Below, one piece after another: positions 53,989 through 55,158 of a stretch of DNA of 64,000 bases (positions are counted from its first letter, which is position 1; each line of letters starts with the position of its first letter). Source of the DNA: Escherichia coli (GTDB taxonomy: Bacteria; Pseudomonadota; Gammaproteobacteria; Enterobacterales; Enterobacteriaceae). The stretch is from the NCBI RefSeq assembly GCF_030013595.1, contig NZ_CP122768.1. The stretch is one strand, 5' to 3'. The notes below the pieces were generated by a model that had not been told where the DNA came from, did not search any database, and was given only the letters and a program-made list of their open reading frames with translations. Both the position numbers and the translations under genes were made by a program.

Positions 53989-54831
53989 TCAGGCTGAGAG
54001 CACAGAAGGAAAGTACCTGGCTATTATATCGTTAATTCTGTCAATCAGTTCCAGCCTTTTGAAAGTGATGTGTGCAGATCCCTTCTTAAAGTATTTAATG
54101 ATGAACATCTCGTCTTCATAGCGCTCTTTACCCTGAACGGACTGGATGTGACCATCCAGACGAATAGTGATGTTTTCCCGGTTGTCGGGGATCGGTTTGC
54201 CGCTGAACAGATGTAGCATTCTTTCCAGGTCGACGAGTCGGTCAGTCTGTTGCCCGGTGATAAGATGAAACCCCCACCGGTCCCACCTCACCAGGTTGTT
54301 GACGATAATTTTACTGCCAAATTTGCAGGGGCAATTGGTTTTGTAATTCCAGCTCAGTCCCCTGAAGACGTTGATCACCCCTCGCTCAAACACCTCATCC
54401 TTGTTCTGGTGTAGTTGTTCAAATGTGCTCAGAATGTTCGCTTCACTGATTTCCGGAAAATTATCGTACTCCAGTGACCGGTACCATGTATCACGGGCCT
54501 GTGCATCCATTAAGGAAAGCATCCCTGAACGTTGCATCAGGTCACGCCAGATTTCGCGATCGAGATTGCGTGTGATGGCTTTCATTGCGGTTTCCGGTTT
54601 CTCCATCAGCCAGCAGCCGCAGCGAAAATCCTGTTTCATGGCCCAGTCCGGGGCGGTTTTGCCGCCAATGCCTGCTGTCAGCACTGAGATTTCTGCCAGT
54701 TGCCGGATAAGCGTTTCGGTTTGTTGCAGTGCTGCATTCCGTACCGTCACAACGTGTTGGATACTGGTGGAGCAGATAACGTCCGTATGCCCGGTGACCA
54801 CTTCCGGACGGGAGATTGTGATGTCTGACAT
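53989..54831 (-). CDS. Hypothetical protein (280 aa) at the island edge; possibly DUF4942-like
   Basis: Long ORF with clear start context; first gene inside the island boundary; function not recognisable by eye. Confidence 0.5.
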   Translation of the reverse strand: MSDITISRPEVVTGHTDVICSTSIQHVVTVRNAALQQTETLIRQLAEISVLTAGIGGKTAPDWAMKQDFRCGCWLMEKPETAMKAITRNLDREIWRDLMQRSGMLSLMDAQARDTWYRSLEYDNFPEISEANILSTFEQLHQNKDEVFERGVINVFRGLSWNYKTNCPCKFGSKIIVNNLVRWDRWGFHLITGQQTDRLVDLERMLHLFSGKPIPDNRENITIRLDGHIQSVQGKERYEDEMFIIKYFKKGSAHITFKRLELIDRINDIIARYFPSVLSA

Positions 54832-54915
54832 TATCGGTTTTCCTTTTGGTTTATAAACGAAAACGCCAGCTGTATTCAGGCTGGCGTCAGGGGAATGAAG
54901 TATGGTGAGTGATAT

Positions 54916-55158
54916 TCACCGGTTCTGGTGCAGAAGCTGCAGATGACGAAGAGCACGGACATCCTTCCGGGCCTGTTCGATGCAGGGCAACAGTGCTGCT
55001 GAATCCGTTCTATCCTCATCGTTGTCAAAGATAATTCCCGATTCGCAGTCGATATTGTCCTGTAGCCACGCAATCAGAATATCCAGTGCGGTTTCCGTGG
55101 TTAATGATTTCATGTTGTTTCTGGTTACCAATCGAAAGTGGGCTGGTCCGGCAGACAT
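54916..55158 (-). CDS. Small hypothetical protein (likely start at MKSLTTE, about 65 aa)
   Basis: ORF immediately downstream of and overlapping the YeeW-like gene end; acidic. Confidence 0.35.
   Translation of the reverse strand: MSAGPAHFRLVTRNNMKSLTTETALDILIAWLQDNIDCESGIIFDNDEDRTDSAALLPCIEQARKDVRALRHLQLLHQNR

Follow-up and report, generated by a model that had tools for sequence, protein, structure and literature searches.

Two open reading frames (ORFs) at one end of a pheV genomic island of Escherichia coli, which an initial annotation had left unassigned and marked as the likeliest place for a defense or addiction function, are genes of known families and belong to the conserved backbone of that island. 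They were analyzed in a 64,000-nucleotide (nt) stretch of contig NZ_CP122768.1 (RefSeq assembly GCF_030013595.1), referred to here as the window. The first (53989 to 54831, minus strand) encodes a 280-amino-acid (aa) protein of the DUF4942 family and is the gene with which the conserved island backbone ends; the second (54916 to 55113, minus strand) encodes a 65-aa protein that RefSeq names DUF957. RefSeq annotates both in thousands of genomes, so that the description as unassigned no longer holds, and as a genome feature they are ordinary. Instead of the defense or addiction function that had been expected of the pair, DUF4942 relatives are enriched in the leading regions of plasmids, in the company of counter-defense and establishment genes.

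We tentatively favor, with slightly less than even confidence, one joint reading of these data. The whole array that ends with DUF4942 (DUF932-ArdB/KlcA-RadC-DUF987-CbeA-CbtA-DUF5983-DUF957-DUF4942) would be the relic leading region of a conjugative or mobilizable ancestor, and DUF4942 an establishment or counter-defense factor whose early target would be either the incoming DNA or a host factor. The protein would be a nucleic-acid-directed accessory module, which in fused relatives would direct a methyltransferase to nucleic acid, and a site made up of W95, D201, H254 and N267 would carry out one and the same step, of binding or of catalysis, whether or not an enzyme is fused to the module. 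The island gene, finally, would be expressed by read-through past a terminator-like hairpin.

DUF4942 genes on islands and plasmids

The 280-aa protein matches the Pfam family DUF4942 (PF13708) with 224.1 bits against a cut-off of 25 (E value of 1.6e-66), over residues 87 to 275 and profile positions 1 to 189 of 190, and is identical to RefSeq WP_077737641.1, a DUF4942 domain-containing protein. Along the 2 kb from 53700 to 55700, the window shows 100% DNA identity with annotated E. coli chromosomes, where the genes are named DUF4942, DUF957 and DUF5983 family protein. The same genes appear in older island papers as L0009/L0010 and as SRL orf55/orf56, and the names found in databases also include Aec78/Aec79 and "restriction methylase." The DUF4942 gene was matched in 3866 of 5426 complete E. 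coli genomes, with a median of 2 copies and a maximum of 8, almost all of them chromosomal. Neither the 280-aa nor the 65-aa protein had a match in NCBIfam, and the defense-system prediction that the initial annotation had proposed returned no match in PADLOC-DB v2 at an E value of ≤0.1 for DUF4942, DUF957 or DUF5983.

In strain K-12, the CP4-44 element ends after a truncated yeeW, and the DUF4942 gene is absent from it; YoeF of K-12 was considered as a DUF4942 remnant and rejected (E value of 0.035). The CbtA/CbeA pair of CP4-44 is described in PMC5371832 as the first characterized type IV toxin-antitoxin system. Absence from this element may be one reason why the DUF4942 family went unstudied.

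The gene is well formed, as had been noted from the outset: it is intact, with an ATG start and an AAGGA Shine-Dalgarno sequence 8 nt upstream, and its length is typical of the family. A search of 1.84 billion representative proteins gave 2109 DUF4942 relatives. Among the best 150 of these, most are 255 to 295 aa long and align almost end to end (about residues 15 to 280 of the query), so that the 280-aa form represents the family norm and not a truncation. We also assembled a comparison set of 80 loci from different Enterobacterales species (56 to 86% protein identity), using a 15-sequence alignment for the locus search, and in 78 of them the DUF4942 ORF was 244 to 342 aa long. Ratios of nonsynonymous to synonymous polymorphism (pN/pS), taken against the window copy and with synonymous sites near saturation, were 0.31 for DUF4942 (n = 76) and 0.34 for DUF957 (n = 10), with values of 0.37 for CbtA, 0.33 for CbeA and 0.40 for RadC. 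On this sequence evidence, both ORFs encode proteins and evolve under purifying selection. Neither belongs to a characterized housekeeping or structural family and neither is truncated, the two findings that would have spoken against the interest first attached to them.

The leading region is the part of a conjugative or mobilizable element that enters the recipient first. A DUF4942 homologue is encoded on 4364 of 72,556 plasmid records (ca. 6%), and 3996 of these 4364 (92%) are conjugative. In an IncI1 plasmid, the homologue adjoins the relaxosome genes mobC/nikA, where oriT is expected, and is co-stranded with ardA, psiA, psiB, a ParB-family gene, ssb and an antirestriction gene. A pOXA-48-like IncL plasmid carries it near the relaxase, among Hha, DUF1380, an antirestriction gene, ssb and a gene with a JAB domain (RadC-like), while an IncP-like contig has it beside korA, incC, korB and a C5 methylase; a MOBH plasmid provides a further context. 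In the IncI1 plasmid pMS6192C, a structured region of ca. 230 nt precedes the homologue and folds as single-stranded DNA (ssDNA) with a z-score of −4.2. By analogy, it agrees with the ssDNA promoters of IncI1 leading regions, described in a paper that leaves the DUF4942 gene unmentioned. The same plasmid has a GC-rich stretch of ca. 470 nt ahead of the homologue (L005:11490-11964), with a long imperfect ssDNA hairpin.

Supplementary Table 1 of a 2024 Nature study (PMC11541004) lists DUF4942 twice among the families enriched in leading regions, as family 24 (2171 members, false discovery rate p = 0, median ORF position 1 from oriT, on the T-strand [strand 1]) and as family 76 (551 members, p = 2e-100). 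DUF932 (YubP/YafZ) is family 3 in the same table, also with a median position of 1, and DUF905 (YubL/YkfF) is family 2; both of these leading-region families bear the names of K-12 prophage proteins (PMC11541004). The island DUF932 gene belongs to the DUF932 (YubP/YafZ) family, and because this family is shared with plasmid leading regions, the island array reads, by analogy, as a fossil leading region.

The enrichment on the oriT side and on the T-strand is a property of the DUF4942 family as a whole and not of the window copy. With its family, the window copy shares a hidden Markov model match over the full domain, the length, the architecture, the family-invariant residues and the RefSeq annotation. 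It differs in being located on a chromosomal island, after cbtA and not beside an identified oriT, and nearly all plasmid homologues are 31 to 37% identical to it. A comparable likeness of context links DUF4942 to ArdA, KlcA/ArdB, PsiB and orphan methyltransferases such as M.EcoGIX, which occupy the same genomic niche and strand as the DUF4942 homologues of plasmids, and an ArdB/KlcA-type gene is also part of the island array. However, the likeness is of context only, as these proteins have no sequence or structural similarity to DUF4942.

Predicted fold and methyltransferase fusions

The profile- and structure-based homology search that had been suggested for the 280-aa protein was carried out and, besides PF13708, brought no solved structural relative. 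An AlphaFold2 model built with a 92-sequence alignment had a predicted local distance difference test (pLDDT) score of 90.7 and a predicted template modeling (pTM) score of 0.83. Its predicted fold consists of long helices (residues 24 to 53, 79 to 102 and 110 to 160) and a small alpha/beta subdomain (residues 174 to 273). Foldseek comparison of the model to the PDB gave a best E value of 0.29 and TM scores of <0.2, that is, no similar solved structure, and PDB sequence searches with the single sequence and with the 92-sequence profile yielded no matches. Four residues, W95, D201, H254 and N267, are invariant across the 92 sequences, which are ca. 30% identical, and many polar residues are nearly invariant. 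H254 and N267 are predicted to lie within a beta-hairpin-plus-helix element.

A few relatives of 460 to 543 aa, found in phages and metagenomes, carry the entire DUF4942 module ahead of a minimal amino-methyltransferase. Their C-terminal domain contains the motifs FFPTP, EPSAGxG and NPPF, has matches to Pfam MTS and shows a weak match to M.TaqI. Phage records annotate the fused proteins as methyltransferases, and an alignment with phrog_6263, itself annotated as a DNA methyltransferase, covers the DUF4942 portion. Because the methyltransferase core in these fusions lacks its own target-recognition domain, the DUF4942 module probably directs this core to nucleic acid. All four invariant residues are retained in the fused proteins. 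The fusions (phrog_6263, gp22 of Pseudomonas phage phiPSA1 and metagenomic proteins of ca. 465 aa) thus have in common with the window protein the whole N-terminal module of ca. 270 aa together with its invariant residues, whereas the window protein is devoid of the methyltransferase domain, the NPPF motif, a motif for binding S-adenosylmethionine (SAM) and a Rossmann-type fold.

The possibility that the 280-aa protein is itself a methyltransferase was rejected. It has no methyltransferase match in Pfam, no SAM-binding motif I and no PP dipeptide (motif IV), and neither the AlphaFold2 model nor its Foldseek comparison to the PDB revealed a class I Rossmann-type fold. Given how many class I methyltransferases the PDB contains, such a fold would have been found. 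With motifs I and IV and the methyltransferase fold all lacking, the label "restriction methylase" is unsupported for the 280-aa protein, which is predicted, from motifs and model alike, to be unable to methylate by itself. A split methyltransferase with its partner encoded next door was likewise unsupported, as an ORF bearing an amino-methyltransferase motif lies nearby in only 1 of 36 distant loci from IMG/VR.

Several observations weigh against the joint reading set out at the beginning. Methyltransferase fusions are rare (4 among the best 150 of the 2109 representatives), and DUF4942 stands alone in 31 of the 36 distant IMG/VR loci with a complete ORF. No constant methyltransferase neighbor of DUF4942 was found in these loci, where the neighboring families were heterogeneous (SSB, RecA, YqaJ, helicases, one Dam and one C5 methylase). 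That polar residues are invariant over ca. 2000 diverse members is easier to reconcile with an enzyme or a fixed ligand than with a variable domain for sequence recognition. The close association with cbtA described below might point to a toxin-related role instead. To these points must be added the low identity of the plasmid homologues to the island protein. Neither an oriT nor a relaxase was identified in the window, and the relic leading-region part of the reading therefore rests on analogy. In the literature searched, we found no experiment on any DUF4942 protein, the name occurring in passing only.

In a variant that we regard as possible, if doubtful, DUF4942 would be a counter-defense or establishment effector with a fold not seen before, working independently of any methyltransferase through its W/D/H/N site. 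As the gene closest to oriT in plasmids, it would be the first to reach the recipient, and the island copies would have been kept for the same activity, gated by the read-through terminator.

Another explanation would make DUF4942 a stand-alone enzyme of new fold, either a nuclease or a DNA- or nucleotide-modifying enzyme, with an active site that includes D201, H254 and N267; the fusions would then couple two catalytic activities, and target recognition would play no part in them. The invariance of W95, D201, H254 and N267 at ca. 30% identity, their retention in the fusions and the predicted placement of H254 and N267 in one structural element are what such an enzyme would display. Yet the model has no structural match to a nuclease, hydrolase or transferase, nor does the protein have a sequence match to solved structures, and we consider this explanation unlikely.

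Hairpin, array and cargo slot

The favored reading, with DUF4942 as an establishment or counter-defense factor at the end of a relic leading region, includes expression by read-through, and this step draws on the spacer of 84 nt that separates the DUF957 and DUF4942 genes. Within it sits a GC-rich hairpin (54863 to 54887, minus strand; ACGCCAGC, loop, GCTGGCGT), after which come a T-rich tract (54853 to 54862) and the ribosome-binding site (RBS) AAGGA (54841 to 54845). The hairpin resembles an intrinsic terminator, and its RNA fold has a z-score of −4.7. Nearly all related loci have an equivalent GC-rich hairpin with a T-tract, located 15 to 35 nt ahead of the DUF4942 start regardless of the upstream gene. 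In a 76-sequence alignment, 94% of the cells of its 9-bp helix were paired, with compensatory changes in 9 of 9 pairs; among the controls, none of 500 shuffles reached the observed values, and pairing with a slid partner was ≤48%. The interval between hairpin and RBS leaves almost no room for a promoter. DUF4942 is probably expressed from the upstream operon, by read-through of this terminator or attenuator.

Throughout the 80 species loci, DUF4942 is the final gene of the co-oriented array that starts with DUF932 and runs through ArdB/KlcA, RadC, DUF987, CbeA, CbtA, DUF5983 and DUF957. The gene immediately upstream is that of CbtA in 55 loci, DUF957 in 12, DUF5983 in 5 and CbeA in 4, the remaining 4 having none of the tested genes in this position, so that DUF4942 adjoins cbtA or cbeA in 59 of the 80. 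DUF5983 is present in 18 and DUF957 in 12 of the loci, and both are therefore optional inserts.

This layout speaks for a different explanation, namely, that DUF4942 belongs to the CbtA/CbeA toxin-antitoxin system as an extra component or modulator, with an addiction function, and that DUF5983 and DUF957 are further accessories of it. In the loci where DUF4942 directly follows cbtA or cbeA, the genes have the same orientation and are separated by gaps of ca. 100 to 130 nt. However, the conserved terminator-like hairpin lies between the toxin-antitoxin genes and DUF4942 and accompanies the latter irrespective of the gene upstream, thousands of plasmid and phage homologues have no CbtA nearby, and CP4-44 of K-12 possesses CbtA/CbeA without a DUF4942 gene. 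A toxin-tied role is in our view quite improbable, and it is the tight linkage to cbtA that keeps it at this weight.

Within the 0 to 4 kb downstream of DUF4942, the related loci contain a variable cargo site. Pairs of a ribbon-helix-helix protein and ParE occupy it in 12 loci and a helix-turn-helix protein in 11; other contents are AbiEi/AbiEii, DarT with a macro-domain protein and integrases of neighboring elements. Elsewhere, housekeeping genes follow directly, which, as recognized by eye, we take to be rpoD, dnaG and folD. In the window, the slot past DUF4942 measures ca. 110 nt and is empty. The slot that collects cargo lies beyond DUF4942, and DUF4942 itself is conserved backbone, not variable cargo. 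The premise that island termini gather defense or addiction genes is borne out in other species, where ParDE, AbiE and DarTG occur downstream of DUF4942, but it does not extend to the two genes studied here, which are conserved backbone genes with no PADLOC match next to an empty slot.

The same clustering of ParDE, AbiE and DarTG, together with the unmatched fold and uncharacterized function of DUF4942, could suggest that DUF4942, alone or with DUF957, is an anti-phage defense gene at the island edge. We judge this to be very unlikely. Besides the absence of a PADLOC match, DUF4942 is an invariant part of the backbone; DUF957 accompanies it in only 12 of the 80 loci, so that the two do not form an obligate pair; and enrichment of the family on the T-strand by oriT, among anti-restriction and SOS-inhibitor genes, is a signature of counter-defense. 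Finally, the notion that the 280-aa ORF is a decaying, functionless remnant of a longer methyltransferase gene, which the "restriction methylase" label of some database records and the existence of longer fused relatives might bring to mind, is essentially excluded by the stand-alone length that is the norm in the family and in 78 of the 80 loci and by a pN/pS as low as that of the neighboring functional genes.

DUF957, the island end and implications

The small ORF had been described as acidic and of roughly 65 aa, and both features stood. Called mechanically, it spans 54916 to 55158 (80 aa), and the start used by RefSeq, an ATG at 55113, yields 65 aa with 12 D/E against 7 K/R and an isoelectric point of 4.67. 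The protein is identical to RefSeq WP_000839269.1, named DUF957 domain-containing protein. This name stands apart from Pfam, the current copy of which gave no match even at an E value of ≤10; the 477 homologue clusters are also without a precomputed Pfam domain, and the Pfam DUF957 model appears to have been withdrawn. The homologues named by source and all loci fetched are from Enterobacterales, except for two probably mislabeled records. A record titled Chryseobacterium sp. 18061 (L015) has the complete island array at 56 to 72% protein identity, and another titled uncultured Clostridia metagenome-assembled genome (L086, a 2.4-kb contig) has a DUF4942 fragment at 83% identity; each probably reflects contamination or a binning error.

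DUF957 is an optional accessory after the DUF5983 gene, which in the window is YeeW-like, spans 55125 to 55613 (minus strand) and was identified by Pfam (DUF5983_N and DUF5983) and RefSeq. In 8 of the 12 species loci with DUF957, DUF5983 is directly upstream. In Hafnia alvei (L009:613-978), DUF957 is fused in frame with the DUF5983 N-terminal domain in a protein of 121 aa, which points to DUF957 working jointly with YeeW-like proteins. A recent preprint (bioRxiv 10.64898/2026.06.09.728211) makes the case that ANF00264, an AntiFam entry, is a genuine protein, predicted to form a homodimer, and places it beside or fused to DUF5983 and next to cbtA. DUF957 resembles it in being just downstream of DUF5983, near cbtA/cbeA, and in being sometimes annotated as a DUF5983 fusion, and the two may be the same sequence.

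The programmed −1 frameshift suggested for ANF00264 in that preprint (bioRxiv 10.64898/2026.06.09.728211) is unlikely to lead from DUF5983 into DUF957. The overlap at 55125 to 55158 contains no slippery heptamer, and DUF957 begins with M at the conserved N terminus in 6 of the 8 loci with DUF5983 directly upstream. In addition, the frame offset between the two genes, determined by hand from coordinates, is 1 in three loci and 2 in six cases (five loci and the window). We also rejected DUF957 and DUF4942 as a two-gene toxin-antitoxin or defense pair, given that DUF957 is found in just the 12 DUF4942 loci counted above.

At the other side of the DUF4942 gene, the type II secretion operon terminates with yghD (gspM) at 53708, and the island ends in a 22-nt remnant (53857 to 53878; GGACTCGGAATCGAA) read from the sequence as the direct repeat that bounds the island. 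We take it to be the 3' end of tRNA-Phe (pheV/pheU) with one base missing. It occurs only once within the window, in which ARAGORN detected no intact tRNA. A 22-bp direct repeat with an indel has been reported at the ends of pheV/pheU islands (PMC6174562). To the right of the repeat follow, all on the minus strand, the 280-aa ORF, the small ORF, DUF5983, cbtA, cbeA, yeeT, radC, the antirestriction gene, DUF932 and Ag43, and the two ORFs are positioned, as first described, between the attachment-site remnant and the YeeW-like gene. The CbtA toxin (55610 to 55987, minus strand) and the CbeA antitoxin (56077 to 56445, minus strand) were both assigned by Pfam and RefSeq. The mechanical call for CbeA extends from 56077 to 56505 (minus strand; 142 aa), compared to a RefSeq protein of 122 aa ending at 56445, and this shorter start is plausible, as the Pfam CbeA domain begins at residue 38 of the long form.

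Some further features were observed around the island end. Just past the DUF4942 stop, a promoter-like site (53941 to 53969, minus strand; TCGATA, a 17-nt spacer and TATAAT, with 10 of 12 matches) is directed out of the island toward the attachment-site remnant; it is a consensus match only. The sole result of an Rfam scan was a sub-threshold match to the Pseudomonas small RNA P9 (53822 to 53908, minus strand; 24 bits against a gathering threshold of 43, E value of 0.039), which overlaps the bidirectional terminator of yghD and the tRNA-Phe remnant and is most likely due to chance. In the record of E. coli NDM2, a strain identical to the window from 53700 to 55700, RefSeq flags gspE, a gene of the neighboring type II secretion operon, as a pseudogene with an internal stop in that strain (L001:4598-6091).

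For the window, the outcome is mostly one of clean-up, the two ORFs being ordinary island-backbone genes and not a hidden defense system. The DUF4942 family is worth studying in its own right, as it is present on IncI1 and pOXA-48-type resistance plasmids, typically as the first ORF after oriT, and has a confident predicted fold with no solved relative. A role in plasmid establishment, if true, would bear on the spread of resistance plasmids.

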